A stretch of 64,000 nucleotides of DNA from Candidatus Binatia bacterium (GCA_036506735.1 DASXRG010000136.1:17654-81653), one strand, 5' to 3'; counted from the stretch's first letter, positions 599 to 51,964 are shown. Translations and numbers: made by a program. Notes: a model not told the origin generated them from the letters alone.

Positions 599-627
599 TT
601 GCGTCCTAGCAGAGAGTTTGGTAATGA
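599..627 (+). promoter_or_regulatory. Candidate sigma70-like promoter (TTGCGT-N17-TAATGA) in the divergent intergenic region upstream of the first SBP gene
   Basis: Hexamers read directly from the sequence; spacing is 17 nt. The -10 lies only ~7 nt upstream of the GTG at 634 (ATG at 643), so the mRNA would be leaderless or nearly so. Confidence 0.2.
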
Positions 628-633
628 GCGCAC

Positions 634-1737: not shown

Positions 1738-1747
1738 GAGGAATAAG

Positions 1748-2704: not shown

Positions 2705-2742
2705 GGCTTGAGGCGCGAGGCGTGAGCGAAAGAGGGAACCTT

Positions 2743-3864
2743 ATGAAGCATAGGATGGCGCTGGCGATAACCATCGTCTTTGCTCTGTCGTTGTCGGGAG
2801 CCGAGGCGGCGGAGATGAAGCCCGACGCGAAGGCTGCGTGGGAGAAAACTCTCGCGGGCGCTAAAAAGGAGGGCGAGGTGAGAATCTGGGGCGACATGGA
2901 GATCACCCACCAAGATATCGTCGCCGCCTTCACGAAAGAAATTCCCTTCATCAAAGCGGTGTCGGTGAGCGGCAAGGTCGGCGACTTGATGCCGCGCATT
3001 ATCGCCGAGCGCCGCGGCGGCAAATATTTGGCCGACGTTTACAGCGGCGGCCTCGGCGGCCGCGCCTTTTACGATTTTCAGCGCGCCGGGGTGCTCGATC
3101 CGCTGAAGCCGCAGCTCGTGCTTCCCGACGTCGTCGACGAATCGAAATGGCTGAACGGCAAACATTACTACGCCGACGCGGAGGGGCAGTACGTTTTCAT
3201 GTACGAAGGCAGCGTCGCCGGCGTCGGACTTTATTACAACAGCAAGCTGTTCGACCCGAAGGAGTTTCACTCCTACTGGGATCTGCTCAATCCGAAGTGG
3301 AAGGGAAAAATCGTTTTGTTCGAACGGCCGGGGACCGGCTCGCCGAACATGGTGCGTTATTACTATAACCCGCAGCTCGGGCCGGAGTTCGTGCGGCGGC
3401 TCTGGAGCGAAATGGACCTCGTCGTTTCTCAAGAGCGGCGCCAGGCGACCGATTGGCTCGGCACGGGAAAATTCGTTCTGTGTCTCGATTGCGCCGACAC
3501 CGACGCGGCGCGCAAGCAAGGCGTCCCGGTCGGCGAGTTCGATCACGCCAATTTGAAGGAAGCCGGCAGCGATATCGGCACGAGCGGCAACAGCGGTCTC
3601 GCGCTGATCAACAAAGCACCGAACCCGAACGCGGCGCGCGTTTTGATCAACTGGTTTCTCTCGCGCCAGGGACAAACCGTTTTTCAGGACGTCATGAACA
3701 ACAAAGTCGTCGAGCCTTCGGACTCGATGCGGATAGATATTCCTAAAAACAACGTTCTCCCTCCCTCTCGGCGCGAAGAAGGGAAAAAATACGTCGTCAC
3801 CGGGTTTCAGGACCCCGACCCGGTGGCGAAGCTGATCAACGAAATCCGGTCTAAAAATAAGTAA
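2743..3864 (+). CDS. Periplasmic ABC-transporter SBP, Fe3+/thiamine-type, paralog 2
   Basis: MKHRMALAITIVFALSLSGAEAAE signal peptide; AGAGGG RBS before ATG 2743. Full-length similarity to SBP1 (KEIPFIKAVSVSGKVGDLMPRIIAERRGGKYLADVYSGG; APNPNAARVLINWFLSRQGQ). Confidence 0.8.
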   Translation: MKHRMALAITIVFALSLSGAEAAEMKPDAKAAWEKTLAGAKKEGEVRIWGDMEITHQDIVAAFTKEIPFIKAVSVSGKVGDLMPRIIAERRGGKYLADVYSGGLGGRAFYDFQRAGVLDPLKPQLVLPDVVDESKWLNGKHYYADAEGQYVFMYEGSVAGVGLYYNSKLFDPKEFHSYWDLLNPKWKGKIVLFERPGTGSPNMVRYYYNPQLGPEFVRRLWSEMDLVVSQERRQATDWLGTGKFVLCLDCADTDAARKQGVPVGEFDHANLKEAGSDIGTSGNSGLALINKAPNPNAARVLINWFLSRQGQTVFQDVMNNKVVEPSDSMRIDIPKNNVLPPSRREEGKKYVVTGFQDPDPVAKLINEIRSKNK

Positions 3865-3874
3865 AGGAGATTTC

Positions 3875-4819
3875 ATGTCGGACTACCAGCCGATCGAGAT
3901 CAAGGGCTTCTACAGATCACATACTCATCTACCGGTTTGGGAAGTAATCGAAAAGGCGGGGATCTGGAAACAACTGGAAATCAAAGCGAGCTTCGAGTAT
4001 TGCGATAGCTCGAGCGTGGCCGAAGCGGCGTTGTTTGACGGCGACGTCGATTTCGTCTCGGGAAATCACATCAGCCCGTATGGCCTGGTGGCCGAAGGCA
4101 AGCCGATCGTGTCGCTCGCCTCGCCGTCGAACAGCGTCAACGACAAGCTCATTGCGCGCGCGCCGATAAAATCCGTCGGCGAGCTGAGAGGAAAACGGCT
4201 GGCCGACACGACCGTGACGGACAAAGGCGGGGGCTACAACCATATCCGCGGCAACCACATGCTCTACGTGCTGAAGGCTGGGTTAAAATTGGATGAGGTC
4301 AAATGGGTGGAGATCGCGGACATCATGTCGGAAAGTTTTCGCGCAGCACAGCTCGAAGCGGTGCGGGAAGGCAAAGCGGACGCCGCGATGGTCACGGGCG
4401 GCGCGGAGAAGTTTCAGCAGGATGGGTTTCACGTTCTGGAACTGGGCCGGATGCCGATGGTCAACGGCCCGACGCTCACGTCCACTCTGACGAATCTCAA
4501 ACGCAAGGACCGCCTCGCCGAACGGCTGGTGAAGGGCCTCGTTCTCGGCATCCATTGGGCGCGGTCGAATCCGGATGAGACCGAGCGCGTCCTCGGCGCA
4601 TTGCGCCAATGTACGCCCGAGTCCAATGCGACTTACAACAGCGTCGCGAAGCTTCTGCCCAAGCCCTACCCCGACCATCAGGCGATTGCCAACGCTTACG
4701 AGCTGTGCTGCATGAAAGATCCCAAGGCAAAGGAGTTGAGCCCGGTCGCGCTCTGGGACCTGCACTATTTGCGCGAGCTGGACGATTCCGGCTTCATCGA
4801 CCGGCTGTATGGCGCGTAA
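3875..4819 (+). CDS. NMT1/THI5-like protein without signal peptide, paralog 2
   Basis: 314 aa, alignable end-to-end with 1748-2704 (MSDYQPIEIKGFYRSHTHLPVWEVIEKAGIWKQ...YELCCMKDPKAKELSP...LRELDDSGFIDRLY). AGGAG RBS. Starts 10 nt after the SBP2 stop. Confidence 0.8.
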   Translation: MSDYQPIEIKGFYRSHTHLPVWEVIEKAGIWKQLEIKASFEYCDSSSVAEAALFDGDVDFVSGNHISPYGLVAEGKPIVSLASPSNSVNDKLIARAPIKSVGELRGKRLADTTVTDKGGGYNHIRGNHMLYVLKAGLKLDEVKWVEIADIMSESFRAAQLEAVREGKADAAMVTGGAEKFQQDGFHVLELGRMPMVNGPTLTSTLTNLKRKDRLAERLVKGLVLGIHWARSNPDETERVLGALRQCTPESNATYNSVAKLLPKPYPDHQAIANAYELCCMKDPKAKELSPVALWDLHYLRELDDSGFIDRLYGA

Positions 4820-4867
4820 AATTGGCGTCCTCGTAAAGACGTTTAGCTGATAGAGAGGAGAACGAAG

Positions 4868-5554
4868 ATGGAAGAAAAAGTGATCACGATGGCCGACAAG
4901 GTTCAGATATTCGATGTCGATGAGGCGCTGAAAAAAGGCGATCAATTGGTCGGCCGCACCGATATGGCTAGGTCGCCGAACAGTTTTGTCGCAGTTTTCC
5001 GGACGCGGCCGCGCGGCGGCGAAACCCACATTCACCAGCATCCCGACTCCGATCAGATCCTCTTCGTTCTAAGGAGCGAATTGACCGTCGAAGGACTGTC
5101 GGAAAAATATGTGTTGAAACCGAATCAAGGCGTCCTGATACCGGCCGGCGTTCATTACGGCTTCACCAACACGACCGATAAGGATTTGATCTTTTTGTCG
5201 ATGCGCACGGAGTCGAGCGGAGGCCGCAGGGTCGCGTACGTGAAAAATGTCCCTTCGAATGTTCACCTCAAGATTCCGGCCGACGCGCTCGCGGCTCGGG
5301 GAATCGGCCACCATATTTACGTGTACGCCATGGACCGCGATACGTTCGGCTTGTCGCCTCTCCTGTTCGAGGATTGGAATAAGGGCTCTCTTTTACGCAT
5401 GAACTGCGAATACGAGATGGATGACGGTCACGTTGTCGCCAAGCTGCCTGAGCGGCTGGTCCAGTGGTACAAGATCGACAGGCTGTCGGACTCGAATTAC
5501 AAATTTATCACGGAGCCGGAAAAGACGCGGGTTCGCGTGGAGCTAAAACGCTGA
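4868..5554 (+). CDS. Cupin-domain protein
   Basis: HIHQHPDSDQILFVLRSELTVEGLSEKYVLKPNQGVLIPAGVHYGF is a classic cupin_2 two-His/Glu motif region. GAGAGGAG RBS. Confidence 0.7.
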   Translation: MEEKVITMADKVQIFDVDEALKKGDQLVGRTDMARSPNSFVAVFRTRPRGGETHIHQHPDSDQILFVLRSELTVEGLSEKYVLKPNQGVLIPAGVHYGFTNTTDKDLIFLSMRTESSGGRRVAYVKNVPSNVHLKIPADALAARGIGHHIYVYAMDRDTFGLSPLLFEDWNKGSLLRMNCEYEMDDGHVVAKLPERLVQWYKIDRLSDSNYKFITEPEKTRVRVELKR

Positions 5555-5559
5555 GGAAA

Positions 5560-5625
5560 AACGTAAGGCGTGAAAGGTAAGGCGTGAAGCGTCCGCCTCA
5601 CCCCTTACCCCTTACCCCTTACGGA
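5560..5625. repeat. GC-rich imperfect inverted-repeat / stem-loop element (GTAAGG x2 ... CCCCTTA x3) between the cupin gene and SBP3
   Basis: Left arm ggtaaggcgtgaagcg pairs with right arm cgcctcaccccttacc (14/16). Flanking direct repeats gtaaggcgtgaa x2 and cccctta x3. No U-tract follows, so this is a possible transcription attenuator or REP-like element. Confidence 0.35.
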
Positions 5626-5645
5626 TACGGGGTGGAGCCAGAAAG

Positions 5646-6692
5646 ATGAAAAGTCGTCGATTCTTTCAGGTAACGATCACGTGCTTGCTCCTTCTTCCCG
5701 CCCTCGTCTTCGCCCAGGGGCTGGACAGGATTGTCGAAGGAGCCAAGAAAGAAGGGAAAGCAAAGATCGGGCTCACGGTTCGATGGCAGGAAGGGGGCAA
5801 GCCCGGCGCAAAGAAGATTGTCGAGCTCTTTCAGTCGCGCTATCCTTTCGTCAAGATCGAATATGAGCGCGTCGGCGGGTCGCGCGAGCGGGAGCGGGTT
5901 CTTTCCGAGCTGGCGGCGGGACAGGTCTCTTACGACGTGACGGTTTTGAGCGAGACGCAGGTGCCGATCGCACTCAAAGCGAACGTCATCGAGAAGATCG
6001 ACTGGCGCGCTCTCGGCGTCGTGCCGCAGCACGTCCATGATAACGACGTCGGCATCAACTATCGCTCTCAGCTTTACGGCATCGCTTACAATCGCAAGCT
6101 CGTTCCCGATTCCGTCGGCGCGAAGCTCAACTGGGACGACTGCGCCTCGGCTCAGTATCGCGGCAAGATCGCGATCGACAGCCGGCCGCGTCACCTGGAG
6201 ATATTTTGGCAGCCGCAGGTGTGGGGACGCGAGAGAACTCTAGCGCACGCGCGGCGCCTGGCTGACAACGCCACAAAATTCGAGCAGGACCGTACCGCGG
6301 CGATAACCAAGCTCGCGCTCGGCGAGTACGCCATCGTTTGCGGCTCCTTTTATTCGACCTATTATGAAGCGGTCCGTTCGGGCGAGAATAGCCAACTCGC
6401 TTTCCGTGTCGCTGAGCCCGTTCCCATGAGCCTCGGCGACGTGGTTTTCGTGCCGCGCGGCGTGCCGCACCCGAACGCGGCCCGACTCTGGGTGGCCTGG
6501 TCTATTTCGGAAGAGGGACAGAAGGTTCTCGACGAGGTGGAGGGAAGCGGCAGCCCCCTCTTCCCAACCACCCAGGCGGCCAGGATGATCAAAGGGAAAA
6601 AGGTCGCATGGTATGAGCCGCAATGGAGAGCCAAGGCGGATGAGATTTTGAAAGAAGTTCTCGAAGCCGTGGGTCTCCCCGTCGTGCGGTGA
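5646..6692 (+). CDS. Periplasmic ABC-transporter SBP, Fe3+/thiamine-type, paralog 3
   Basis: Signal peptide MKSRRFFQVTITCLLLLPALVFAQG. VPHPNAARLWVAWSISEEGQ motif. GGAG RBS. Stop overlaps the permease start (ATGA). Confidence 0.8.
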   Translation: MKSRRFFQVTITCLLLLPALVFAQGLDRIVEGAKKEGKAKIGLTVRWQEGGKPGAKKIVELFQSRYPFVKIEYERVGGSRERERVLSELAAGQVSYDVTVLSETQVPIALKANVIEKIDWRALGVVPQHVHDNDVGINYRSQLYGIAYNRKLVPDSVGAKLNWDDCASAQYRGKIAIDSRPRHLEIFWQPQVWGRERTLAHARRLADNATKFEQDRTAAITKLALGEYAIVCGSFYSTYYEAVRSGENSQLAFRVAEPVPMSLGDVVFVPRGVPHPNAARLWVAWSISEEGQKVLDEVEGSGSPLFPTTQAARMIKGKKVAWYEPQWRAKADEILKEVLEAVGLPVVR

Positions 6693-8419
6693 GCATGCGG
6701 CTAAGACTTCCGAGCGCCACGACGCTCTTCTTGGCTTGCGTCGTCCTGATTCTGCTCTGGCTCATCGTCATCCCTCTCGGACAGATGGTTCTGAACAGTT
6801 TCCGCACGGGCCATCCCGCCGCGCCCGGTCCGTTCACTTTGAAAAACTACCTGGTCGCTTACACCAGCCCGTTAACCTACCGAATGATTTTCAACACGCT
6901 CGTGTTTGCCGTCGGCGGCACGGCGATCACGACCGTCATCGCGATCTTTTTCGCCTGGCTCCTGGAACGAACCGACATGCCGCTGCAAAATCTTTGCTGG
7001 AGTCTTTTGCTGATCCCGCTGGCCATGCCCGGGCTGCTCTTTTCCATGGCGTACGTTTTTCTGCTTTTGCCCAAGAGCGGTCTATTGAACGTCTTTCTGC
7101 GCGATGCGTTGTCCCACCTCGGCGTCGAGCTTTCCGAGGGGCCGATCAATATCTACTCTCTCGGCGGCATGATCTTTCTTGACGGACTGCGCGGCGTCAC
7201 GACGGTATTTCTCATGATCGTCGGCGCGTTTCGCATCATGGATCCGGCGATGGAGGAAGCCTCCTTCGCCGCGGGCGCAAAGAATTGGATGACGTTAAAG
7301 AAAGTGACCCTGCCGGTTTTGCGCCCTGCTCTTCTGGCGGCGGTGCTCTATGAGTTTGCCTCTTCCATGGAGTCTTTCGAAGCTCCCTTGGTGCTCGGTC
7401 TTCCCGGCCGAGTCTACGTTTACAGCACGATGATTTACATCTCCACGCGCGACGCCATCCCTAACTATGGTTTGGGGGCGGCGTTTGCGGCGAGCTACTT
7501 TGTCCTCTCGCTCGGACTCGTTTACCTTTATCAACGGGCCACGGTCCGGCAGTCGGAGCGCTTCGCCACCGTCACCGGCAGGGGATACCGGCCGCACAGG
7601 ATAAGGCTCGGCCGCTGGCGCTATCCGGCGCTCGCGCTTTTCATTTTGTATTTTCTGTTCGCCGTCGCGCTTCCTCTTGGAGTGCTGGTCTGGACTTCGC
7701 TGCTCCCCTCTTACCAGCCGCCGTCGCGCGCGGCTCTGACGCGGCTTCACTGGGGAAATTACCAAATGATCTTCGCCGACCCCGCCATCCTCAGGGCGAT
7801 CTGGAACACTTTGATCATGACCTTCGGCGCCGCCACGGCGACCGTCGCTCTTGCTTTCGGCGTCTCGTGGCTGGTCGTTCGGGCCCGCGTTAGAGGCTCC
7901 ATGGCTCTGGACGGACTCACCTTCGCGTCGCACGCCATTCCCGGCGTGGTGATCGCGCTTTCGTTTATATTCTTATACCTGCAGCCGCCGATGCGCTCGC
8001 TGGGCCTTTACGGAACCGTGTGGGTCGTCGTCCTGGCGCTCGTAACGCAATACGTTTCGTTCGCCTCCAGAGCCACCAACGCGGCGGTCATGCAGGTTCA
8101 CACGGAGCTCGAGGAGGCGGGCGAAGTGAGTGGAGCAAGCCGGCTGCGCATCCTCTGGCAGATCACTTTCCCCTTGATCCGCCCCGCTTTTATCGCCGCA
8201 TGGATCTGGGTTGCGGCTCACGCGGTCCGCGCCTTTTCGGTCCCGCTGATGCTCGCGGGCCGCGACAGCCGCCCGCTCGCAGTCATGCTCTGGCATCTGT
8301 GGGATGAAGAGCAAAATCTGCCGGCCGCCGCCGCGCTGGGAGTCCTGTTGATTCTGGCCTTGACGCTTCTGACCTTTTCCGGCAGGGCGATCGTCACCCG
8401 GGGCTTCGCATCCTCGTAA
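6689..8419 (+). CDS. Fused two-domain ABC-transporter permease (FbpB/ThiP-like, ~12 TM)
   Basis: 576 aa with two repeated permease halves, many hydrophobic helices and EAA-like loops (e.g. ...GAKNWMTLKKVTLPVLRPALLAAV..., ...ASRLRILWQITFPLIRPAFIAA...). Translationally coupled to SBP3. Confidence 0.85.
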   Translation: MSMRLRLPSATTLFLACVVLILLWLIVIPLGQMVLNSFRTGHPAAPGPFTLKNYLVAYTSPLTYRMIFNTLVFAVGGTAITTVIAIFFAWLLERTDMPLQNLCWSLLLIPLAMPGLLFSMAYVFLLLPKSGLLNVFLRDALSHLGVELSEGPINIYSLGGMIFLDGLRGVTTVFLMIVGAFRIMDPAMEEASFAAGAKNWMTLKKVTLPVLRPALLAAVLYEFASSMESFEAPLVLGLPGRVYVYSTMIYISTRDAIPNYGLGAAFAASYFVLSLGLVYLYQRATVRQSERFATVTGRGYRPHRIRLGRWRYPALALFILYFLFAVALPLGVLVWTSLLPSYQPPSRAALTRLHWGNYQMIFADPAILRAIWNTLIMTFGAATATVALAFGVSWLVVRARVRGSMALDGLTFASHAIPGVVIALSFIFLYLQPPMRSLGLYGTVWVVVLALVTQYVSFASRATNAAVMQVHTELEEAGEVSGASRLRILWQITFPLIRPAFIAAWIWVAAHAVRAFSVPLMLAGRDSRPLAVMLWHLWDEEQNLPAAAALGVLLILALTLLTFSGRAIVTRGFASS

Positions 8420-8432
8420 AGGGGCTTAGGGC

Positions 8433-9575
8433 ATGCTTGATTCTGCGAGGCGAAATCGTCGCACGGCGTGGAGAGCTGCGACTCTTGTCCTGCTGCTTTT
8501 AGGTTTTGTCGATAGCGGCTCGGCGCAGACAGACTGGAAAGCGGAATGGAACAAGACGCTGGCTGCGGCTAAAAAAGAAGGACGCCTTAATCTCTATGTC
8601 GGCCGGTATGGTCAGGCCCCGCTGCTCGCCGAGTTCGCCAAAGAGTTTCCAGAAATCAAACTGGTCACGGTCAATGGAACGGGAAACCAATTAGGGACAA
8701 GAATCTTGGCCGAGGTCAGGTCAAGCAAAGTCATAGCGGATCTCTATAGCGGCGGCGCCAACTCGAGTCATACCCTGCTCTATCGGGGCAAAGTTCTCGA
8801 CGCCTTTCCGACCACGCTGATTCTTCCCGAGGTCGTCGATGAATCCAAGTGGTATTCGGGTAAGCACGTTTACACGGACGTGGAGGGGAAGTATATTTTC
8901 GTTTACATAGCCAATCCGGGCGGCGGGAGCATCTCCTACAACACCGATCTTGTGAATCCTAAGGAGTTCAGGTCGTACTGGGATCTTCTCCAGCTCAAAT
9001 GGAAAGGGAAGATCGGTTCCCAGCCGCTCACGGAAACCGGCCTGGGCGCGACGCTTCAGTTTTTCTTTTATCACCCGGAGATCGGCCCGGAATGGATCAG
9101 GCGAATTTACGGGACGATGCACGTCACGTTCGGCGATCGGCGTCTCATCGTGGATTGGCTGGCTAAAGGAAAACTCGCCCTTTGCGTAGGGTGCAGAGAG
9201 GTGGAGCGCGCTAAAGCGCAAGGACTTCCGGTAGCTCGATTCGATGACGGCACGTGGAAAGAAGGACAGGGTCTAAGCACCGGCGGCGGCTCGATGAGCC
9301 TTATCAAGGGCGCCCCTCATCCAAATGCGGCGAAGGTCTTTATCAACTGGTTTCTCTCCCGCCAGGGACAGATCGCGCTGCAAAGCTCCAACGACCTCTA
9401 TGGCGAGCCCCCGCCCAACTCCCGCAGGATCGATATCCCAAAAGATATGCTCGCGCCGGACGATAGGCTGGTAGAGGGGAGGAAATATGTAGATGTCTCC
9501 CGCAGCGAATATGCCGACATGACGCCGATCTTTAAACTGGCGAAGGATATCATGAAAACCATCGAACAGAAGTAG
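8433..9575 (+). CDS. Periplasmic ABC-transporter SBP, Fe3+/thiamine-type, paralog 4
   Basis: Signal peptide ...TLVLLLLGFVDSGSAQT. KEFPEIKLVTVNGTGNQLGTRILAEVRSSKVIADLYSGG and APHPNAAKVFINWFLSRQGQ motifs. Confidence 0.8.
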   Translation: MLDSARRNRRTAWRAATLVLLLLGFVDSGSAQTDWKAEWNKTLAAAKKEGRLNLYVGRYGQAPLLAEFAKEFPEIKLVTVNGTGNQLGTRILAEVRSSKVIADLYSGGANSSHTLLYRGKVLDAFPTTLILPEVVDESKWYSGKHVYTDVEGKYIFVYIANPGGGSISYNTDLVNPKEFRSYWDLLQLKWKGKIGSQPLTETGLGATLQFFFYHPEIGPEWIRRIYGTMHVTFGDRRLIVDWLAKGKLALCVGCREVERAKAQGLPVARFDDGTWKEGQGLSTGGGSMSLIKGAPHPNAAKVFINWFLSRQGQIALQSSNDLYGEPPPNSRRIDIPKDMLAPDDRLVEGRKYVDVSRSEYADMTPIFKLAKDIMKTIEQK

Positions 9576-9586
9576 CGAGGGACTCG

Positions 9587-10753
9587 GTGAGTAGCGCGTT
9601 GCGAATGTTCGGTATCCTTGGATTTTTCATCTTGGGATTTTTCTTCCATTCGTTGCCGCTCTCAGCCGCGGAAACCAAGCCCGCCTGGCAGGCCGAATGG
9701 GAGAAAGCCGTGCGAGCGGCCGAGCAGGAGGGCCAAGTCGTCGTTTACATCGCCGGCTATGAGGCGGTGATCGCCGCGGGAATTTTTCAGAAGGCATATC
9801 CAAAAATCCGCGTCGTGACCGTGAGCGGATCCGGCACGCAGCTCGCGCCGCGCATCGCCTCGGAGAGAAGAGCGGGCAAGTACCTGGCCGACGTTTACAA
9901 CGGCGGCGGCAACTCGCTGCACCAGATTCTCTATCTCGGCAAGATGCTCGATCCGATCAAGCGCGCGCTGATCCTCCCCGAAGTTCTGGACGAGTCGAAA
10001 TGGTGGGAAGGAAAACACAAGTATGTCGATCCCGAGAGCATGTATGTCTTCGTCTACGAGGGCAACGTCTCGAGCGGCGGCGGCCTGAGCTACAACACCA
10101 AGCTCCTTAACGCGAAGGACTACAGGTCCTTCTGGGATTTCCTCGATCCCAAATTGAAGGGAAAGATCGTCGCCGCAGACCTGAGACAAGTGAGAGGCGC
10201 GGGACTATCGTGGCAGTATCTCTACTACCACCCGCAGCTCGGGCCGGCCTACATCAAGCGCCTTTACGGCGAAATGGACGTGACCATGTCGGCGGATTTG
10301 CGCCAAGCGGTAGACTGGATGGCGATGGGGAAAGTGGTTCTCTGCATTCCTTGTCAAGGCTCGGGCGTAGCGCGGGCGCGAAATCAGGGACTTCCCGTCG
10401 ATCAGTTCGAGCCGTTTCATTTCAAGGAAGGAGTGTCGATCTCTTCGGCCTTCGGCCAACTGGCGTTGCTGAACCGAGCGCCGCATCCGAACGCGGCCAA
10501 GGTATTCATCAATTGGCTCCTCTCGCGCGACGGCCAGAGCGCGTTTCAGAAAATCATGAGCGAGCCCGGCGACCCGCGCGACTCGCGCCGGGTCGACGTG
10601 CCCAAGGACCACATCCCGCCCGGCGAGCGGCGGAGAGACGGGATGCGCTACTTCGACACCGACGATCCCGAGACCAAGGACATAACACCCATCACAAAGC
10701 TTCTCGACGAGCTCCTGGCCAAGAAAAAGCCAGCAGACGGCAGCGCGCCTTAA
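9587..10753 (+). CDS. Periplasmic ABC-transporter SBP, Fe3+/thiamine-type, paralog 5
   Basis: GTG start with GAGGG RBS. Hydrophobic leader ILGFFILGFFFHSLPLSAAE. APRIASERRAGKYLADVYNGG and APHPNAAKVFINWLLSRDGQ motifs. Confidence 0.8.
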   Translation: MSSALRMFGILGFFILGFFFHSLPLSAAETKPAWQAEWEKAVRAAEQEGQVVVYIAGYEAVIAAGIFQKAYPKIRVVTVSGSGTQLAPRIASERRAGKYLADVYNGGGNSLHQILYLGKMLDPIKRALILPEVLDESKWWEGKHKYVDPESMYVFVYEGNVSSGGGLSYNTKLLNAKDYRSFWDFLDPKLKGKIVAADLRQVRGAGLSWQYLYYHPQLGPAYIKRLYGEMDVTMSADLRQAVDWMAMGKVVLCIPCQGSGVARARNQGLPVDQFEPFHFKEGVSISSAFGQLALLNRAPHPNAAKVFINWLLSRDGQSAFQKIMSEPGDPRDSRRVDVPKDHIPPGERRRDGMRYFDTDDPETKDITPITKLLDELLAKKKPADGSAP

Positions 10754-10981
10754 GGGCGCTACGGCCGAGCATCGTCACGTACGTTTTGTACCAAATTCTC
10801 CCCTGCCTGAACATTTTTGTGTTTAGTCCAACCCCCTGATTTACAGCGGGATTGACGGAAAAAATTTCCTACCGGCAAATTTTTCCTAAAGCCCCGGCAT
10901 TTGTTGCCGATGCCAATGCAGTGGCCAGGAAAGCACCCGTCCCAAGGCCTTCCAATTTAATCATTCGATATAAGGAACCCT

Positions 10982-13114
10982 GTGAAGACCAAACTCGATC
11001 TTCCTTCGAACTTGTTTAGCTATAAACCGACCCAACTCGCCAGCGGCATGCTGGACCGGGTGCGCAAGAAAGGCGTCGGCGCGATCGCGCCCGAGAAGGG
11101 CCTTTCACAAAAAGGCCTTTCTCAAGCCGTCGCCCAAAGCGCTCTAAAGATCCAGCAGCAACTCAGCGTCAAGGCGAACACCGACAACCGCGTCCAGTCG
11201 CGCGTCGAGAGCCAAACGGCGCGGTCGGCGGTGCAGGACGGCCAAACCGTCAAGGTCTTAACCAAGCAGGCGATTCAAGGGGAAACCAATCAGCAGCAGC
11301 GGTCGGAAGTCTCGCAGCGCTCCCAGCAGGTGGTCCAGGGCCAAACCAACGGCAAGCCGGTCTACAAAAATGTGGAGCGGGAGGTTTTTCAGATCAACGT
11401 CGGAAACAGGGAAGCGGAGTTCAAGGAAGTGCGCGTCAACCACGACAGCTCGACGCGGAACGTCGTGCAGAAGGCCAACGCCACGCGCGTGAGCCTCAGC
11501 ACTGACAGTTCCAGCACCCGAAACCGTAGCGATACGGTCGCCGCTCAGAACCGAACCGAGACCGAGACCTACGTCAGAACCTACGACTCTTTGGGCAATT
11601 TGGTGAGCGAGAAGGCGAGCCGGCAAGCCGTTACGACGACGCAGCAGCAGCAATCGGCCGTGAAGGCGCAGGCGGAGGCGAGCCGGCAAGTCGCGCAGCA
11701 GACCACCGTCGAGGCGAGCCAGGAAGGTAAGAAATCCGTCCGCGCGGGCACGACCGAAACGACCGACACTTCCAAGGGTCATCAACAAATCGAAACTCAA
11801 ATCCAATCGAAGACCGCCACGTTGGTGGAAAACCTCGGCGCCGACGGAGAGGTTCTTTCCGCCAAGGCCAGCGCGCAGCAGGTGACGACGACCGAGGCGA
11901 GAACGATCGACACGAGCCGCGCGAGCCACACCGAGCAAACCAACCTGACGCGCACCGGCCCGGATCAATTGGAAACCACAAGCCATACCCAATACGATAC
12001 CAGAGCCAGGACCGTGGATCAGATCAAAACCGAAGGCGACACGCAGCAATTCGACGACAAGGGCGCGCTGGTGCGCGAGCAGGCCTTCGAGCGACAGGTC
12101 ACCACGACCAGCACCGAGAACCGAAACGGCGAATCGCAGACGCGCGCGGCGACCAGCAAAGAAAAGAACGGCGACACCGTGGCGGAAACCGACATTACGT
12201 CAAGCGAATCGGTCGCCGCCGCAACGAGAGTCGTGTCCGAACAGGGCGGCGCGAAAACCGAAAGGGTGATCGAGAGCCAACTCCACACCGAACTGCGCGC
12301 CGACTTGGCGAACCGAATGGAGGCCGACGGGCAGAGGACGATCTCGTTCGACACGCAGCAGACCCGCACGGCACAAACCGCCGATCTGACCGCGGGCACG
12401 AATGGCCAGGGCCGCCTCGTCGAGAGCGAAACGAAGATCGCCCAACTAGCCCGCGGCCAAATCGAATATTCGCCCGAGACGCAGCAAGTCGGCGTCCACG
12501 CCGGAGCGGGCGCGATCATCGTCGACATTAGAAGCGCCGCCGGACTGCGCGCCAGCTTTAAACTCGATGAAGGACAGCTTGAATTCGACTTTTCGGCCGA
12601 GACTGCGACGGTCTCTCATCAGGAAGTCACGACCGGGAAAGTGATCCAGGGAAACGACGGCGCATCGACCGTGACGGGCTCATCCACCGACTCGCAGCGT
12701 GCTTCTGTCGAGACCGTTCACTTTCACGGCCACGTCAACGCGTCCGTCGATGCCGCAGGCAACCGGGTGTTGGAGCTCGACGGAGAACTCACTCAGGATT
12801 CAGCCGCCGTTCTCGTAGCCAACCAGCAGCAGGGAATCCAGGCCGAGCGAAGCTACACAGAGCTGGATGTCTTCGGGCGGCTGGCGGTCAATCGCCAGGT
12901 CTCCACGAACGGTTCCGCAACCGAGTTTCAGACTCAGGCTGAAGCCGAGCTGACAGTGGCTCGCGTCGAGAAGCGCGAAGACGCCGCGGTCGGCATGGCG
13001 AGCCTCAGTCGCTTGACCACGGCCGATGCCGTGCGCGCGGGTTTCCAAGCCTATCGCAGCACGATTCAACTTCACGTCGGCGGCTTCGATCTCGGCATCA
13101 GCTTCGTAGCTTAG
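10982..13114 (+). CDS. Gln/Thr/Ser-rich low-complexity protein (710 aa), unknown function, likely largely disordered
   Basis: No Cys and few hydrophobic residues. Internal ~70-90-aa repeats with motif G.LVSEKAS.Q.VTTT (three times). C-terminal ~170 aa less biased (…IQLHVGGFDLGISFVA). AAGGA RBS, GTG start. Preceded by a 228-bp lower-GC leader. Confidence 0.6.
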   Translation: MKTKLDLPSNLFSYKPTQLASGMLDRVRKKGVGAIAPEKGLSQKGLSQAVAQSALKIQQQLSVKANTDNRVQSRVESQTARSAVQDGQTVKVLTKQAIQGETNQQQRSEVSQRSQQVVQGQTNGKPVYKNVEREVFQINVGNREAEFKEVRVNHDSSTRNVVQKANATRVSLSTDSSSTRNRSDTVAAQNRTETETYVRTYDSLGNLVSEKASRQAVTTTQQQQSAVKAQAEASRQVAQQTTVEASQEGKKSVRAGTTETTDTSKGHQQIETQIQSKTATLVENLGADGEVLSAKASAQQVTTTEARTIDTSRASHTEQTNLTRTGPDQLETTSHTQYDTRARTVDQIKTEGDTQQFDDKGALVREQAFERQVTTTSTENRNGESQTRAATSKEKNGDTVAETDITSSESVAAATRVVSEQGGAKTERVIESQLHTELRADLANRMEADGQRTISFDTQQTRTAQTADLTAGTNGQGRLVESETKIAQLARGQIEYSPETQQVGVHAGAGAIIVDIRSAAGLRASFKLDEGQLEFDFSAETATVSHQEVTTGKVIQGNDGASTVTGSSTDSQRASVETVHFHGHVNASVDAAGNRVLELDGELTQDSAAVLVANQQQGIQAERSYTELDVFGRLAVNRQVSTNGSATEFQTQAEAELTVARVEKREDAAVGMASLSRLTTADAVRAGFQAYRSTIQLHVGGFDLGISFVA

Positions 13115-13119
13115 GAGTC

Positions 13120-14031
13120 ATGAGCCAGCTCCATATCGATGAACGACAGTCCGCGCGCCACGCGGACCTCTCCGACCATCATCACGAGGCGAACCGGCTC
13201 GCGCGGGAAGGGCGTCTCGCCCAGGCGGTGGCCCAGTGGGAGCTGTCGTTGAACGACGCGCCGCAATGCGCCGCCACCCATTACAATTTGGGGCTCGCCT
13301 ACTATCGCCAGGGAAATTTCGCCAAAGCCGCGAGCCATTGGCAAAAAGCCGCCGATGTCGATCCGCGCCATCCCGAGGCCCCTTATGCGTTGGGCCTCGC
13401 CTACTCCGAGCAAGGGCTGGTCGATCAGGCGAGAGACACTTTCGAGAGATTTCTGCAAACCAACCCGCGCCACCCCGCGACCTTGAATAATTTGGGACTC
13501 CTGCAGGCGCAAAAGCAACGCTTCGAAGAGGCGGCCGATTATTTCCGCCGGGCGATAGAAGCCAACCCCGGCTATGCCAACGCTCACTACAATCTCGGGA
13601 CCGTGTGGTATGAACAGGGAAAATATCCGGAGGCGATCGAAGCATTAAAGAAAGTTCTCGATCTCGAGCCGGGCTACGCCATGGCGCACCATAATCTCGG
13701 CCTCTGTCACGATCGTCTGGGAAATTTTGACGATGCGGAAAGATCGTTCCATCAAGCGCAGGCCTTGGATCCCGATTTCCCGCCGGCCTATTACAATCTC
13801 GGTCTCGTCTACTATCATTGGCAGCGATATGACGAAGCGATCGCGAGCTACCGCCAGGCCAAGGCTCGCGGGTTCGACAACTCGCTGCTCCGCTATGAGT
13901 TAGGCCTCGCTTATTCGGCTCTCGGCAGGAAATACGAGACGCTGAAGGTGTGGCAATCGATCGTCGCGGACGACCCGCACGGGCCACTGACCCCGGAAGT
14001 CAAGCTGCGGATCGCCGACCTCTTCACATAA
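13120..14031 (+). CDS. Tetratricopeptide-repeat (TPR) protein
   Basis: At least seven canonical TPR units (HYNLGLAYYRQGNFAKA...; AHYNLGTVWYEQGKYPEAIEALKKVLDLEP...). Start 6 nt after the Q/T-rich gene stop, with AGGAG RBS, indicating an operon. Confidence 0.8.
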   Translation: MSQLHIDERQSARHADLSDHHHEANRLAREGRLAQAVAQWELSLNDAPQCAATHYNLGLAYYRQGNFAKAASHWQKAADVDPRHPEAPYALGLAYSEQGLVDQARDTFERFLQTNPRHPATLNNLGLLQAQKQRFEEAADYFRRAIEANPGYANAHYNLGTVWYEQGKYPEAIEALKKVLDLEPGYAMAHHNLGLCHDRLGNFDDAERSFHQAQALDPDFPPAYYNLGLVYYHWQRYDEAIASYRQAKARGFDNSLLRYELGLAYSALGRKYETLKVWQSIVADDPHGPLTPEVKLRIADLFT

Positions 14032-14033
14032 TC

Positions 14034-15011
14034 TCACTGGTCACGCAAAACTTTTTCCAACGGCCCGTTTTCCCGGAACGGCTCCGGCCATCCCAGATAT
14101 TCTTTGAACTCGGGACGTTTTCCGATCAAGTCTTTCACCACGTTGTCGATCCCCTTGTCCGGCACCCGAGGCGCCCGCTTGAAAAGCGGCGCGTACACGG
14201 CCACCGACCGTTTGACGATCCCGAGATCTTTTTCCCGCAGCCATTTGGCAAACGACTTTTCCGCCAACGCGCGATCCTTTCGGATCAAATGAATCGCCGC
14301 GACGTAGGCCCGGAGAAAGTCCTCGGTGAGCTTCGGCTCCGCTTTGATAAACGCGCGGCTGCTGGTCACGCAGGATGAAGGATAAATCAAATCCGTTTTG
14401 CTGAGATCGACGAGCACCGGCCAGCCGCGATCCAAAAAAGATATCGCGTAGCGGGTCGTCAGGGCGGCTGCGGCGATGCGCCCCGCTTCCAACGCCGCGA
14501 CCATTTCCGGCCCGGCGCCCAACTGCAGGACCGTCACGTCCCGCTCGGGATCGAGGCCGGCGTGCTTCAGCGCCGCGCGGAGATAGAAATGCGTGCTCGA
14601 ACCGTAGCGCGTCACGCCGCTCGCCAGGCCCTTGAGCTCCGCCGGCGACTTGATTTCGGGACGCGCGATCAGGTAGACGGGGTCGGTGTCGATGGGACAG
14701 GCGAGCAAAACCACGTCGCCTCCCGCCACCCGCGCCGCCACCACCGATTCCGCGCCGACGCCGGAAAACGGCAGATCGCCGGTGATGATGACCAGCGCAA
14801 TCAATGAGCCGCCGCGAATCTGCACCGGCTCGACTTCCAAGCCATGCCGGGCAAAAAGGCCGGCGTCTTTCGCCACCCAGACGGGAAGATGCGCGGGCGA
14901 GGCGGTCGTTCCGTAGTAGATGCGTCTCAGCTCCTGCGCCGGGGTTGGCCGGCCAACCAGGAGCAACGCCGCGCAGATGGCGAGCTGAATTTTAAATTTG
15001 AAGCCGGTCAT
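14034..15011 (-). CDS. NMT1/SsuA-like periplasmic SBP (nitrate/sulfonate/bicarbonate family), orphan
   Basis: Signal peptide MTGFKFKIQLAICAALLLVGRPTPAQ. SsuA-like core (GGSLIALVIITGDLPFSG..., VVLLACPIDTDPVYLIARPEIKSPAELKG). Confidence 0.75.
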   Translation of the reverse strand: MTGFKFKIQLAICAALLLVGRPTPAQELRRIYYGTTASPAHLPVWVAKDAGLFARHGLEVEPVQIRGGSLIALVIITGDLPFSGVGAESVVAARVAGGDVVLLACPIDTDPVYLIARPEIKSPAELKGLASGVTRYGSSTHFYLRAALKHAGLDPERDVTVLQLGAGPEMVAALEAGRIAAAALTTRYAISFLDRGWPVLVDLSKTDLIYPSSCVTSSRAFIKAEPKLTEDFLRAYVAAIHLIRKDRALAEKSFAKWLREKDLGIVKRSVAVYAPLFKRAPRVPDKGIDNVVKDLIGKRPEFKEYLGWPEPFRENGPLEKVLRDQ

Positions 15012-15159
15012 CGCGACTCGACCCGGCCGGGCTGTGACGGGCGACAGACCTCAGCCGCAGTCTTGATAATCGCTTATATTCCGCGGAACGTTCGCCCGTC
15101 AACGGGAGAAATGTTGGGGCTTTGGAGCGAATGGGCCTGTTCACGAAGGAATGCGACGG

Positions 15160-15603
15160 CTACTTTCCCCGCACCGTCAGCACCGGGCAGAAAGCCTGCG
15201 AGACGACCCGGCTGGCAACGCTGCCCATGAGCAACTTTGAAATGCCGGTGCGGCCGTGCGTGCCGATCACGATCATGTCGGCGCGGCGATTTTTCGCGGC
15301 GCGAACGATTTGATCGTGCGCCACGCCTTTGAGCAGCAGGTTCGTCACCTTGATTTTCGTCCGCTTGAGTTTGTTCGCCAGCGTCGCGAGCGAAGACTGC
15401 GCTTGCTGCCGGGCGGTTTTTTCCAACTCGACATAGAGAAGCGGATCCGCCTCGGGCTCCGGCGGATACATCACGTGCGGGACCAGAACGTGGACCAGCA
15501 GCAGCTCGGCTTTGAATTGTTTGGCAAAATCCACGGCTGTTTCCAGCGCCCGGCTCGAGGCCTTGGAAAAATCGGTCGCATGGAGAATCCGACGCAGTTT
15601 CAT
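15160..15603 (-). CDS. Universal stress protein (UspA family)
   Basis: MKLRRILHATDFSKASSRALETAVDFAKQFKAELLLVHV...IVIGTHGRTGISKLLMGSVASRVV is the UspA ATP-binding motif (G-x2-G-x9-G(S/T)). Confidence 0.75.
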   Translation of the reverse strand: MKLRRILHATDFSKASSRALETAVDFAKQFKAELLLVHVLVPHVMYPPEPEADPLLYVELEKTARQQAQSSLATLANKLKRTKIKVTNLLLKGVAHDQIVRAAKNRRADMIVIGTHGRTGISKLLMGSVASRVVSQAFCPVLTVRGK

Positions 15604-15662
15604 AACACCCTCCCCTGCCCTCACCGCTTATCCAGAGTTATGACGCGCCGCCGCAAAAGCAC

Positions 15663-16067
15663 TTACAATGAAGTGCGATGCCGATGATAAGTGTGGTCGG
15701 GGTGATCGTCCGGATGCCGTTCTACGTCCGGATGACGCTCTACGGGATAAGCTTCTCTTTCTCCTCCAAGTCGCGCATTCTCGATCTCCAGTTCGTGGAC
15801 CCGCTGTTCGAGCTCAGCCACCGTGCGCCGGCTATTTCTCACCGCCCGATCTCTGCCGTAAATGGTCATCCTTGCCGAAACGGACTGAGCCACGTAAAGA
15901 ATCCACGCGATGAGGAGCCCGGCGAGGAGCGAGCCGACTACGACTAAATACAGCGGGACTTCCTCCAGGGCGTACTCCGCGAGCCGGATCGTCACGGGAA
16001 CCGTATTTTGAGTTGCAAAGTAACCGATGCCCAATCCAAAAACCACCGCAATAAGTAAAGGTAACAT
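15663..16067 (-). CDS. LapA-like (DUF1049) small inner-membrane protein
   Basis: Two N-terminal TM helices, then a coiled segment (ELEQRVHELEIENARL) and a His/Asp-rich tail. Architecture typical of the lipopolysaccharide assembly protein A family. Confidence 0.5.
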   Translation of the reverse strand: MLPLLIAVVFGLGIGYFATQNTVPVTIRLAEYALEEVPLYLVVVGSLLAGLLIAWILYVAQSVSARMTIYGRDRAVRNSRRTVAELEQRVHELEIENARLGGEREAYPVERHPDVERHPDDHPDHTYHRHRTSL

Positions 16068-16197
16068 AGTTCGCTCCTTCCTATAGACACACGCTTCTAA
16101 AAAATTTTACCGGCGTTGGAAAAACAAGTCGATCCGGGTGAATACCTTATGCGTATAAACTCTGCCGCCGGGTGTCAGGTAAGGACTAGGGCGGCCG

Positions 16198-17190
16198 TCA
16201 CTCGACCTTGTAGCCCAGCTCCTTGGCGATTTCGATCGCGAATCTGGGCTCGGCGACGTCTTGAAACGATACGGTCTTGGCGGAGGGTTTGAGCTGCGAC
16301 TGGACCATTTTGATGATGTTGTTCATGCCTTCTTCCGTCGGAATGCCGGTGTCATTGAAGTTGCTTTGCACCAGGCTATAGGTTTCCGCGGCGGTTTCCC
16401 GATCCATATTGAGGACGCGCACGATCAGATCGATAGTTTTTTCTTTCGCCTTGAGCATCTCTCTTTTGGCGAGCTGCAGCGCGCGAATCAGTCTCTTGAC
16501 CTCGTCGGGACGGTTTTTGATCGTTCGAAGCATCGCGGTCAGTCCGCCCGACGGCATCTCGACCAGCGCGCCGACGTCGAGCAGTTTACGAAAACCCTGC
16601 CGCTGGGCGAAAAACATATAAGGAGGATTCAGGGACGCGGCGTCGAGAAACTTCGATTCCAACGAGGAGACGAGCTGCATCGGCGGCACGGACATGATGA
16701 TGAAATCTTTGGCGTTGAATCCCTGCTTCTCCAGCGCGAACGTCAACGCGACGTGGCTGGTGCCGCCGAGACCGCTTACGCCGATGCGCTTTTGTTTGAG
16801 ATCGTGAACGGTTTTAAATTCCGGCCGCGCCATCAGCCAATAGGCGATCCGGTTGGTCGACGACCACACGGCGCGGGAGTCGAGGCCGCTCAGGCTCGCC
16901 CCGACCGTCGCCGGCCCGATGCCCGATTGGTAGTCGAGATCTCCCGAGACCAGCGCGGCGGCCGCGGCCGACGAGCGCATGAGGATGATCTCGACTTCGA
17001 GCCCCTGGCCGGCGAAAAATTTCCAGTCGCGCGCCGCGATCAGCGGCAGCGCGGTGAAGCTGAAGTTGGCATTGGAGATTCTAATCCTGCGCCGCTCTTG
17101 CGAGCCGGCGCTCGCAGCGTGGAGCAAAAAGAAAACCAGCAGGCACGCGGCGGACAACCGGCGGAGCGAGCTTTCGAGTCGCATCGTCAA
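16198..17190 (-). CDS. NMT1/SsuA-like periplasmic SBP, orphan
   Basis: Signal peptide LLVFFLLHAASAGSQ. SsuA-like motifs (VSGDLDYQSGIG; KQKRIGVSGLGGTSHVAL). 4-nt overlap with the upstream SBP gene. Confidence 0.75.
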   Translation of the reverse strand: MTMRLESSLRRLSAACLLVFFLLHAASAGSQERRRIRISNANFSFTALPLIAARDWKFFAGQGLEVEIILMRSSAAAAALVSGDLDYQSGIGPATVGASLSGLDSRAVWSSTNRIAYWLMARPEFKTVHDLKQKRIGVSGLGGTSHVALTFALEKQGFNAKDFIIMSVPPMQLVSSLESKFLDAASLNPPYMFFAQRQGFRKLLDVGALVEMPSGGLTAMLRTIKNRPDEVKRLIRALQLAKREMLKAKEKTIDLIVRVLNMDRETAAETYSLVQSNFNDTGIPTEEGMNNIIKMVQSQLKPSAKTVSFQDVAEPRFAIEIAKELGYKVE

Positions 17191-18185
17191 CGGCCCTGAC
17201 CCGGGAAAACCGCGCTGTCGCGGACCTTGTTGAGCAGGCTCATGTCTTCGAGGTCGTCCGGCGTAAACGTCTTGGCGATTTTCAAGGTCTCGCGATAAAT
17301 TTCGATCTCCGTCTCCACCGCCTTGCGCGGCTTCGTGCCGTCTTTGCTGTAACTCGGCAGCATCGCGGTAAACGATTTTTCCGCCAGCACCGGATCGATT
17401 TTGTGAAAAGCCGCGATGTACTGAATCATTTCGTTCCGGTTCGCCGGATTGTGCAAGTAGGCCATGGTTTTGAGTAAGCCGGCGATCAGCGTCTGTGCTT
17501 TAGTGGAATTTTTCGCCAGCGTGACCGTTGAAGTCACGAGACCGATGAAGCTCAAAGGCGCGTATGCCTTGGCTTCGGCGAGATGGCTGTATCCTTTCGC
17601 TTCGAGCTCTTGCGCGAACGGCGGCGCCAGCATCGTCGCCGCGACCTTGCCGGTCGTCAAAGACTTGTAAGCGGTCTCGGTCACGCCAGTGGAGAGCAAA
17701 GTGACGCGCGCGGGATCGACGCCGTTCGCTTTTAAAATTATTTTCGCCGCCATGCCGGTGGCGTCGGTGATCGCGTTCACGCTGACGACCTTGCCGGCCA
17801 GCTCTTGAACGCTCTTCAGCTCCGGCTGGCCGACGAGCACGTGCGCCGGCTCGTGCTGCACATAAAAAATGCGCCGCAGCGGATGGCCCTGCATGATGGC
17901 GGAAGTCGCCGCTCCCAGCGTCGTGGAAAAATCCAGCTCGCCGGCGACGAGAGCGACGATGGCGGTCGGCGGCGCCATTGCGACGAACTGTATTTCGATC
18001 GCTTCCCGGGGAAAGAAACCCTTATCCTTGCCGAAGTAGTAAGGCATCAGCGCAAGGCTCTTCGAAGGAATGTGGATCGTGACCTTGGCCGGCTGCGATG
18101 CGGGTTGGCTGAGCGATGGCCAAAGAACCGACACGACGGCGAAAACGACGACCGACAGCAGCCATCGACGCGCAGCACTCTTCAC
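17187..18185 (-). CDS. NMT1/SsuA-like periplasmic SBP, orphan
   Basis: Signal peptide MKSAARRWLLSVVVFAVVSVLWPSLSQPASQ. SsuA-like core (VAGELDFSTTLGAATS; LAGKVVSVNAITDATGMAAKI). Confidence 0.75.
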   Translation of the reverse strand: MKSAARRWLLSVVVFAVVSVLWPSLSQPASQPAKVTIHIPSKSLALMPYYFGKDKGFFPREAIEIQFVAMAPPTAIVALVAGELDFSTTLGAATSAIMQGHPLRRIFYVQHEPAHVLVGQPELKSVQELAGKVVSVNAITDATGMAAKIILKANGVDPARVTLLSTGVTETAYKSLTTGKVAATMLAPPFAQELEAKGYSHLAEAKAYAPLSFIGLVTSTVTLAKNSTKAQTLIAGLLKTMAYLHNPANRNEMIQYIAAFHKIDPVLAEKSFTAMLPSYSKDGTKPRKAVETEIEIYRETLKIAKTFTPDDLEDMSLLNKVRDSAVFPGQGR

Positions 18186-23778: not shown

Positions 23779-23786
23779 GAGGAGCC

Positions 23787-51766: not shown

Positions 51767-51964
51767 AAGCGCTCCCGGCCGGGTGGCACTGAAAATCAAA
51801 CGTTAATCGCCGCGGCTGCCTCGCCGAAGTAGTGTGACGTAAATTAAGTCAATTGAGGCGAAGCGTCAAGCGAGAACGGCCACACACGCCGACAAAAGCG
51901 CGTTCTTGCGGGCTAGGGTCGTATCTTGTAAGAACAGCTACACGATCGCAGAAAGGAGTTAACG

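Follow-up and report, generated by a model that had tools for sequence, protein, structure and literature searches.

A 64,000-nucleotide (nt) stretch of DNA from Candidatus Binatia bacterium (GCA_036506735.1 DASXRG010000136.1:17654-81653), referred to here as the window, encodes a cysteine-free protein of 710 amino acids (aa) that is predicted to be all-beta (the beta protein), immediately followed by a tetratricopeptide repeat (TPR) protein. The beta protein belongs to no described family; the sigma-28 motif, the riboswitch and the TPR repeats that come with it are standard parts, and the novelty rests in the protein family and the module. As a promoter of the sigma-28 clade and riboswitches for cyclic di-GMP (c-di-GMP) front the same rare family in different lineages, the module likely belongs to a motility/c-di-GMP regulon, and the beta protein is probably a new component of the motile/sessile switch. 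The interpretation tentatively preferred is that of a structural protein of this regulon without a Sec signal, probably exported, which would be held or targeted by its TPR partner. The genes found behind c-di-GMP riboswitches or sigma-28 promoters are mostly members of known families (motility, chemotaxis, pilus or adhesin). In the present case, a pair of unrelated devices of motile/sessile control converges on a single family without known relatives, nearly always paired with a TPR protein, across lineages labelled as different phyla. The pair is therefore a candidate missing component of motility or surface behavior in little-known soil and sediment bacteria (Binatia and others).

The beta-protein family and its TPR partner

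The beta-protein gene (Table 1) is a real, conserved gene. Its open reading frame (ORF) begins with GTG, and its GC content at codon positions 1, 2 and 3 (0.62, 0.46 and 0.76) is similar to that of the flanking genes. Compared with three orthologs, mismatches at third positions (0.46-0.53) are about twice as frequent as at positions 1 and 2; the frame is thus translated.

The product has a heavily skewed amino acid composition (T 11.8, A 11.1, Q 10.4, S 9.0, V 9.0, E 7.5 and R 6.8%), and both Cys and Trp are absent. T+S+Q+N amount to 35.1%, compared to 15.9 +/- 2.6% in the 47 other ORFs of the window (z = 7.5), whereas hydrophobic residues (21% versus 34%) and Pro (0.8% versus 4.9%) are depleted. 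The same tendency extends to the whole family (27 members, 17,387 residues), with 0.01% Cys and 0.07% Trp and with T, A, S, V, Q, G and N as the dominant residues. The bias and the lack of Cys had been recognized initially; the accompanying statement that an aromatic or hydrophobic core is almost missing is overstated, since Val makes up 9% of the protein. A signal peptide is unlikely, as had been proposed, because the N-terminus contains no hydrophobic 15-residue window (maximum Kyte-Doolittle value 0.25). No hydrophobic N-terminus or transmembrane stretch was found across the 27 members, and the 710-aa translation has no long poly-Q or poly-N runs.

The family is rare. Among 5.8 billion clustered proteins, only eight relatives were found (697-710 aa), with 53-65% identity across 100% of the length in an almost gap-free alignment; one originates from an NCBI metagenome-assembled genome (MAG) labelled Candidatus Binatia, and one GTDB representative is also from Binatia. 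An exhaustive hidden Markov model search of 1.84 billion representatives yielded 26 clusters, about ten of the hits being fragments. Full-length members have approximately 600-750 aa, and the most distant ones, with identity to the window protein down to 17-20%, retain the same length; MAG labels among these hits include Verrucomicrobia and Armatimonadetes. The diverse alignment (A4) offered no stretch conserved enough for a metagenome scan, while a narrower alignment (A5) led to four further partial loci, the loci being designated here by L numbers.

No characterized family fits the beta protein, in agreement with the initial annotation. Matches are missing from Pfam (window protein at E <= 1, all 27 members at E <= 0.1), save for weak Tcp10_C (E = 0.027) and MORN_2 (E = 0.01) matches in one member, as well as from NCBIfam, PHROGs and PADLOC, and a sequence-profile search of PDB returned only noise (E >= 0.3). 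Relatives were found neither on plasmids searched by tblastn nor in the scanned viral contigs of IMG/VR; together with the lack of PHROGs and PADLOC matches, this does not support a phage or anti-phage defense protein. The literature searched describes neither the pairing of beta protein and TPR protein nor any TPR or hypothetical-protein module behind a c-di-GMP riboswitch.

The downstream gene encodes a TPR protein according to Pfam (TPR_1, 1.3e-51, with six stretches; TPR_2, 3.1e-49). The initial annotation correctly gave it a ribosome-binding site of its own; the spacing it reported as 6 nt is 5 nt, and of the seven repeats it counted Pfam scores six stretches. The overlap of the Shine-Dalgarno sequence with the stop codon of the beta-protein gene permits translational coupling, and the two genes are probably coupled in this way. 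None of the NCBIfam TPR equivalogs (MamA, PilW, LcrH/SycD, Tgl, NlpI, LapB and others) reaches its cut-off, the best match being MamA (131 bits, cut-off 200), with PilW at 112 (cut-off 154) and LcrH_SycD at 67 (cut-off 104.8).

The arrangement is conserved well beyond the closest relatives. In the window, L001, L002/3, L004, L014 and the P0007 contig, the TPR gene follows on the same strand after 5 nt, and the protein has 303-304 aa throughout the Binatia clade. In the intermediate clade (L019 and L020), a TPR ortholog with 45-50% identity lies on the same strand after gaps of 201 and 13 nt, respectively. In the most distant clade (L006/7/8, L009, L016/17 and L018), the adjacent TPR gene is convergent; it encodes 316-338 aa and aligns collinearly without gaps over approximately 260-280 residues, with 29-32% identity, reaching the same C-terminal tail. 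Altogether, a TPR ortholog (29-59% identity, gap-free, collinear) is adjacent at 12 of the 14 distinct loci with readable downstream sequence, the two loci without it being L010 and L011. As these include lineages in which the beta protein is only 17-20% identical, the TPR protein is regarded as a true functional partner, and a functional link between the two proteins is highly likely. The synteny thus bears out the initial suggestion of a partnership.

A sigma-28-type promoter and c-di-GMP riboswitches

The 228-bp leader of the beta-protein gene has a GC content of 0.475-0.52, compared to about 0.60 around it, as had been noticed. TTGACG, to which the initial annotation pointed, does occur (10852-10857), yet the leaders of orthologs do not conserve it, while the A/T-tract repeats it mentioned are real and conserved. 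The conserved promoter signal, missed at that stage, is instead a sigma-28 (FliA/WhiG)-type motif (Table 1). An island of the form GGAAAAAATTTCC-N-GG(C/A)AAATTTTTCC-TAAAG-N14-GCCGAT is invariant in four aligned Binatia-clade leaders, and all five distinct leaders of this clade carry TAAAG-N14-GCCGAT unchanged, between -87 and -95 relative to the start codon. In L020, a copy with one mismatch is located at -58 (background about 0.05 per 350 nt). The exact pattern TAAA-N15-GCCGAT occurs a single time in the 64-kb window, with 0.17 occurrences expected. Transcription is predicted to start at approximately 10918-10921, which would give a leader of about 62 nt.

The motif exactly fits both the consensus of the flagellar sigma factor, TAAAGTTT-n11-GCCGATAA (PMC2859248), and that of the sigma-28 clade, with TAAA at -35 and GCCGATAA at -10 (PMC8325347), and the pair is presumably transcribed by a sigma-28 holoenzyme. 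The A/T-tract palindromes could represent UP-element-like tracts or sites of a dimeric regulator. The inverted repeat within the promoter spacer is unexplained by sigma-28 recognition and perhaps serves as the operator of a second regulator. CGGCA...TTGCC was rejected as a sigma-54 promoter because its GG-GC spacing is 10 nt, where 12 would be required. A simple sigma-70 scan detected no promoter in the window leader, and Rfam detected no structured RNA in it at E <= 1 beyond two chance matches. Neither the window nor the Binatia loci retrieved contain a fliA gene.

In other lineages, the beta-protein gene appears to be controlled in another way. The window leader contains no c-di-GMP-I riboswitch according to Rfam; directly upstream of five distant members (L006, L009, L013, L016 and L018), a c-di-GMP-I or c-di-GMP-I-GGC aptamer scores above the Rfam gathering threshold (51.8-65.2 bits), and all five aptamers are followed by a clear intrinsic terminator. 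Three of them score best as the GGC variant. Between the orthologous genes the aptamer differs, with L006, L016 and L018 on one side and L009 and L013 on the other: some have the standard c-di-GMP-I form (GACGCAAAGC), others the Rfam 'GGC' variant (GGCGCAAAGC in L006 and L016), which suggests that both classes serve the same regulatory purpose in this family. By eye, TTGAAT-N17-TGnTATAAT sigma-70 promoters are visible 5' of the aptamer in L006 and L009. A known example of a c-di-GMP-I (GEMM-I) riboswitch regulon is the flgB operon of Clostridioides difficile. The five family members resemble such regulons in having c-di-GMP-I-clan aptamers with terminators; the window differs in having no riboswitch, and the regulated family is undescribed.

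Two of the riboswitch-bearing genes have motility genes nearby. In L006, the beta-protein gene is divergent from a 12-gene che operon encoding CheY, CheX, CheA, CheD, CheB, a PilZ protein, CheR, a methyl-accepting chemotaxis protein and CheW. In L009, it lies beside genes for a response regulator and an Hpt kinase, approximately 4.4 kb from flgB-flgC-fliE-fliF-fliG-fliH-fliI. The che operon of the riboswitch lineage (L006 1-9676; L009 1-9684) comprises two CheD, two CheX and one PilZ gene. The identity of the FliG of this lineage to its relatives falls from 71% to 45%, with no named relative above 45% and mixed phylum labels at about 40%; as no named relative exceeds 45%, the lineage is considered deep and uncultured.

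The two inputs found in the family across lineages, a promoter of this type and c-di-GMP, are also joined in the WhiG-RsiG-c-di-GMP switch, which links a TAAA/GCCGATAA promoter to c-di-GMP and by which sigma-28-clade factors can be under c-di-GMP control; that switch differs in having been described in Actinobacteria (PMC8325347). The same inputs might serve a protein of a biofilm or adhesion matrix, produced while c-di-GMP is abundant, with the riboswitch as an ON switch, and released by an unknown route, its Binatia promoter being read by a non-flagellar WhiG-like factor. The composition suits a surface protein, and one member was automatically annotated as 'adhesin' by JGI. Moreover, c-di-GMP-I riboswitches often control adhesin and matrix genes. 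Sigma-28-clade factors can, besides their control by c-di-GMP, drive type IV pili (PMC8325347). The neighbors in L006 and L009, however, are che and flagellar rather than matrix genes, and most Binatota orders possess flagellar genes (PMC8262859). Aptamer and terminator can co-fold in three of the five leaders, and a possible antiterminator in L013 and L016 draws on bases of the aptamer; this layout weakly suits an OFF switch. A matrix protein of this kind is thus improbable, while the cell-surface or matrix role named in the initial annotation survives as a broader candidate.

Table 1. Features of the module; positions refer to the window unless a locus is named
Feature	Position	Strand	Basis or remark
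A/T-tract palindromes GGAAAAAATTTCC (10857-10869) and GGCAAATTTTTCC (10874-10886)	10857-10886	+	Directly 5' of -35; conserved in all Binatia-clade leaders (alignment A2)
Sigma-28 (FliA/WhiG)-type promoter: TAAAG (-35), 14 nt, GCCGAT (-10)	10887-10911	+	Consensus match and conservation
Inverted repeat CGGCA-N5-TGCCG	10895-10909	+	Within promoter spacer, overlapping -10; invariant in all five Binatia-clade leaders
Ribosome-binding site AAGGA	10972-10976	+	5 nt 5' of GTG start; read from sequence; N-terminus MKTK... kept in orthologs
Beta-protein gene, 710 aa	10982-13114	+	ORF with GTG start
Predicted helices, residues 8-35	11003-11086		AlphaFold2 model
Predicted long-hairpin sheet, residues 55-498	11144-12475		AlphaFold2 model
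Three related long beta-hairpin units, residues 167-250, 251-328 and 329-398	11480-12175	+	Turn motif (Y/F/L)(D/G)xxGxL(V/L)S.. then ..QxVTTT in each
C-terminal beta region, residues 511-710	12512-13111		About 200 residues; best conserved part of the family
Shine-Dalgarno sequence (AGGAG) for the TPR gene	13113-13117	+	Overlaps upstream TAG stop (13112-13114)
TPR gene, 303 aa, cytoplasmic, 6-7 repeats and conserved C-terminal tail	13120-14031	+	Pfam
c-di-GMP-I-type aptamers	L006 9848-9929; L009 9852-9932; L013 1-71; L016 9238-9318; L018 4462-4541		Rfam

Predicted architecture of the beta protein

With AlphaFold2, the predicted local distance difference test (pLDDT) score of the beta protein rose from 69.8 with eight sequences to 83.8 with a still shallow alignment of 27 (five models, 78.9-83.8; predicted template modelling score 0.70). 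The model comprises N-terminal helices, a disordered linker (residues 38-53), a long-hairpin sheet and a C-terminal beta region of more hydrophobic character (Table 1). It contains 23 antiparallel strands of 20-42 residues, nine of them of 29-42, connected by turns of 2 or 5 residues, and 86% of residues 55-710 lie in strands. Polar and V/A/T positions alternate along the strands, albeit weakly. Invariant glycines coincide with the predicted turns, 11 of 17 lying in loops that constitute 14% of the residues (p = 2e-6), and a (Y/F)DxxGxL motif recurs in the turns of 5 residues. Together, these data give good confidence that the beta protein is folded and all-beta, as modelled, and very probably it forms a sheet of very long beta-hairpins.

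The three copies of the G.LVSEKAS.Q.VTTT motif reported in the initial annotation are present (residues 205-220, 289-304 and 361-376) and lie within three related hairpin units of 70-84 aa, for which hhalign gives a probability of 85% between the first and second (E = 6e-6) and of 63% between the second and third (E = 7e-5). The reported C-terminal end GGFDLGISFVA is likewise present; across the family the tail ...ISF(V/Y/L)A is almost invariant, and the final residue is Ala in 25 of the 26 members with the C-terminus present. Polar hairpin-repeat sheets are also found in OspA, the CPAP G-box/Tcp10_C, MORN and RHS/YD repeats, and the turn of the beta protein resembles the YD motif (YDxxGxL). 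In contrast to those proteins, its strands are 3-4 times longer, its unit has 70-84 aa instead of about 20, and the TM-score is at most 0.15; the Pfam RHS_repeat model has no match in the beta protein, which thus falls outside the RHS/YD family. Should the predicted architecture be right, it would constitute a new fold type, with very long hairpins and no conventional hydrophobic core, of interest to structural biologists and protein designers.

The polar, biased composition and the predicted disorder of residues 38-53 are what might be expected of an intrinsically disordered protein, and the initial annotation had indeed proposed a disordered, condensate-forming, LEA-like or prion-like Q/T-rich protein. 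This is contradicted by the nearly indel-free, full-length conservation at 53-65% identity, the length kept by members of 17-20% identity, the confident beta prediction and the invariant Gly at turns; in addition, LEA or other Pfam matches and long poly-Q or poly-N runs are missing. Disorder of the whole protein is consequently scarcely credible. The case cautions that a Q/T-rich ORF of apparent low complexity may encode a well-folded beta protein.

Foldseek searches of PDB (with both models) and BFVD gave no global match, and the local beta-meander matches (sheets of vitellogenin and ApoB100, TonB-dependent barrels, LptD and TamA) all have TM-scores of at most 0.15. The barrels among them, the 23 predicted strands and weak sub-threshold matches of the TPR protein to the PgaA and BcsC models could hint at an outer-membrane beta-barrel or exopolysaccharide porin acting with the TPR protein, as in AlgE/AlgK, PgaA, BcsC and PelB; pairs of a TPR and a beta-rich protein under c-di-GMP control are a known theme. 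Nevertheless, a signal peptide and a lipobox are missing from both proteins, the polar strands of 30-42 residues provide no hydrophobic belt, and the terminal residue is Ala rather than an aromatic one. Furthermore, TM-scores to barrels do not exceed 0.15, and no synthase genes are linked to the module. The porin reading is largely refuted and thus very improbable.

Possible roles of the pair and neighboring genes

In the mechanism tentatively proposed, the module would comprise an all-beta protein, folded, very hydrophilic and free of Cys, together with its own TPR partner in the cytoplasm, within a motile/sessile-switch regulon. In the Binatia relative, the pair would be read from the sigma-28 (FliA/WhiG-type) promoter behind the A/T tracts, and in the other lineages the beta gene would be gated by the c-di-GMP-I riboswitch and its terminator. 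In the cytoplasm, the TPR protein might hold or target freshly synthesized beta protein, perhaps by way of the C-terminal tail of the latter. The beta protein might then leave the cytoplasm by a Sec-independent route, the likeliest being the flagellar type III export apparatus, and form a structural or adhesive sheet outside. A composition poor in Cys and Trp, rich in T/S/Q/N/A and without a Sec signal resembles that of proteins secreted independently of Sec, such as flagellins. A structural protein exported without Sec is favored because low Cys and Trp content, richness in T/S/Q/N/A and the lack of a Sec signal or transmembrane segment occur together with a cytoplasmic partner. Export itself, judged by this analogy, is doubtful, and the chaperone role, the extracellular role and the binding site of the TPR protein on the beta protein are likewise conjectural.

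The closest parallel is provided by the export substrates of the sigma-28 class and their chaperones (FliC-FliS, FlgK/FlgL-FlgN and FliD-FliT). They share with the module the promoter type, a product free of Cys and Trp, rich in T/S/Q/N/A and without a Sec signal, a flexible N-terminus, a conserved C-terminal region and an adjacent gene for a dedicated cytoplasmic partner, and che and flagellar operons accompany distant members of the beta family. Unlike these substrates, the beta protein has no Flagellin_N/C, Flg_bb_rod, Flg_bbr_C, FliD or FliK domain in Pfam; it is predicted to be all-beta, with strands at the C-terminus and no terminal coiled coils, and its partner is a 300-aa TPR protein unlike the FliS, FlgN and FliT folds. 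Class II chaperones of type III secretion (SycD/LcrH/IpgC/PcrH) are also cytoplasmic TPR proteins encoded beside a Sec-independent protein, possibly a client in the present case. They differ in having about 160 aa, three TPRs and helical membrane proteins as clients, and no injectisome genes are found at the module. TPR receptors that bind free C-terminal peptides include PEX5, which recognizes PTS1, and Hop, which recognizes EEVD. The almost invariant Ala-COOH tail and the dedicated TPR partner recall these systems; there is no sequence relation to them.

A bolder and unlikely version holds that the family is a novel type of building block for the envelope or the cell exterior, in which the giant sheet of 30-42-residue strands is a flagellar type III cargo whose free C-terminal tail is read by the TPR protein, and which assembles edge-to-edge outside swimming cells as a sheath, fiber or adhesive layer. 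If true, it would represent a non-axial, all-beta cargo of flagellar export, controlled by sigma-28 or c-di-GMP, and its TPR partner would found a new class of export chaperones.

Alternatively, both proteins might remain intracellular. With the TPR protein, the beta protein could in the motile phase assemble a large scaffold of beta-sheet, located at the membrane, at the chemoreceptor array or at the flagellar base, or it could coat an intracellular surface, with the N-terminal amphipathic helix as an anchor. Such a role would agree with the lack of a recognized secretion signal, and specifically of a signal peptide, in both proteins and of secretion genes linked to the module, as well as with the existence of cytoplasmic TPR scaffolds, MamA being the best NCBIfam match. 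The top local Foldseek matches are open lipid-binding sheets (vitellogenin and ApoB100), and the strands have a weak V/A/T face opposite a polar one. On the other hand, this apolar face is not strong enough to bind membranes or lipids, and the TM-scores of those matches (<=0.15) are meaningless. Near-zero Cys and Trp over 17,387 residues and 35% T+S+Q+N are atypical for cytoplasmic proteins of this genome. An intracellular scaffold appears rather unlikely, though it ranks first among the rival readings.

Several points weigh against the preferred interpretation of an exported motility/c-di-GMP-regulon protein. Export is inferred from composition and analogy only; no homology to a flagellar axial protein, export substrate or chaperone family was found in Pfam or NCBIfam, and no flagellar chaperone is known to be a TPR protein. 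The fold is based only on the 27-sequence alignment, and AlphaFold is prone to over-predict hairpins in repetitive polar sequences. Neither the window nor the Binatia-clade loci contain a flagellar or che gene detectable by tblastn with the L006 and L009 proteins, and L010 and L011 have no TPR neighbor, riboswitch or sigma-28 motif. Judged from folding, the riboswitch could be of either polarity, ON or OFF, and in the riboswitch lineages expression could peak in sessile cells. Finally, not every gene driven by sigma-28-clade factors is flagellar: in Rubrobacter they serve type IV pili, and in Streptomyces they serve sporulation (PMC8325347).

The genes flanking the module vary within the Binatia clade: genes for a solute-binding protein, Usp and LapA are present in the window and L001, a PIN toxin gene and a xanthine-dehydrogenase-type gene in L002, and a MauE-like gene in L004. 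In the window, 600-10750 and 14034-18185 are unusually dense in genes for periplasmic solute-binding proteins (SBP_bac_1/6/8 and NMT1-like, at least ten copies). The only permease gene among them lies at 6689-8419, and a cupin gene at 4868-5554; the arrangement is repeated at L001, the locus of the NCBI Binatia MAG. There, an extra gene absent from the window (7691-9679) lies between the genes for the solute-binding protein and the beta protein and encodes a 662-aa protein whose N-terminal domain is soluble and whose C-terminal half spans the membrane several times; no Pfam match is recorded for it.

Elsewhere in the window, two tandem paralogous genes encode family III CoA-transferases (22561-24995; PF02515, 7.8e-100 and 4.4e-96), and a malate synthase G gene is located at 42117-44303. 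An 854-aa protein encoded on the minus strand (49235-51799) combines N-terminal TPR repeats with a C-terminal CHAT (caspase-like) domain (PF12770, 1.5e-59). An 864-aa ORF on the plus strand (58714-61308), with a low GC content of 0.33 at codon position 2 and sub-threshold Pfam matches to Tropomyosin (24.8 bits) and Fib_alpha (25.7 bits), probably encodes a long coiled-coil protein.

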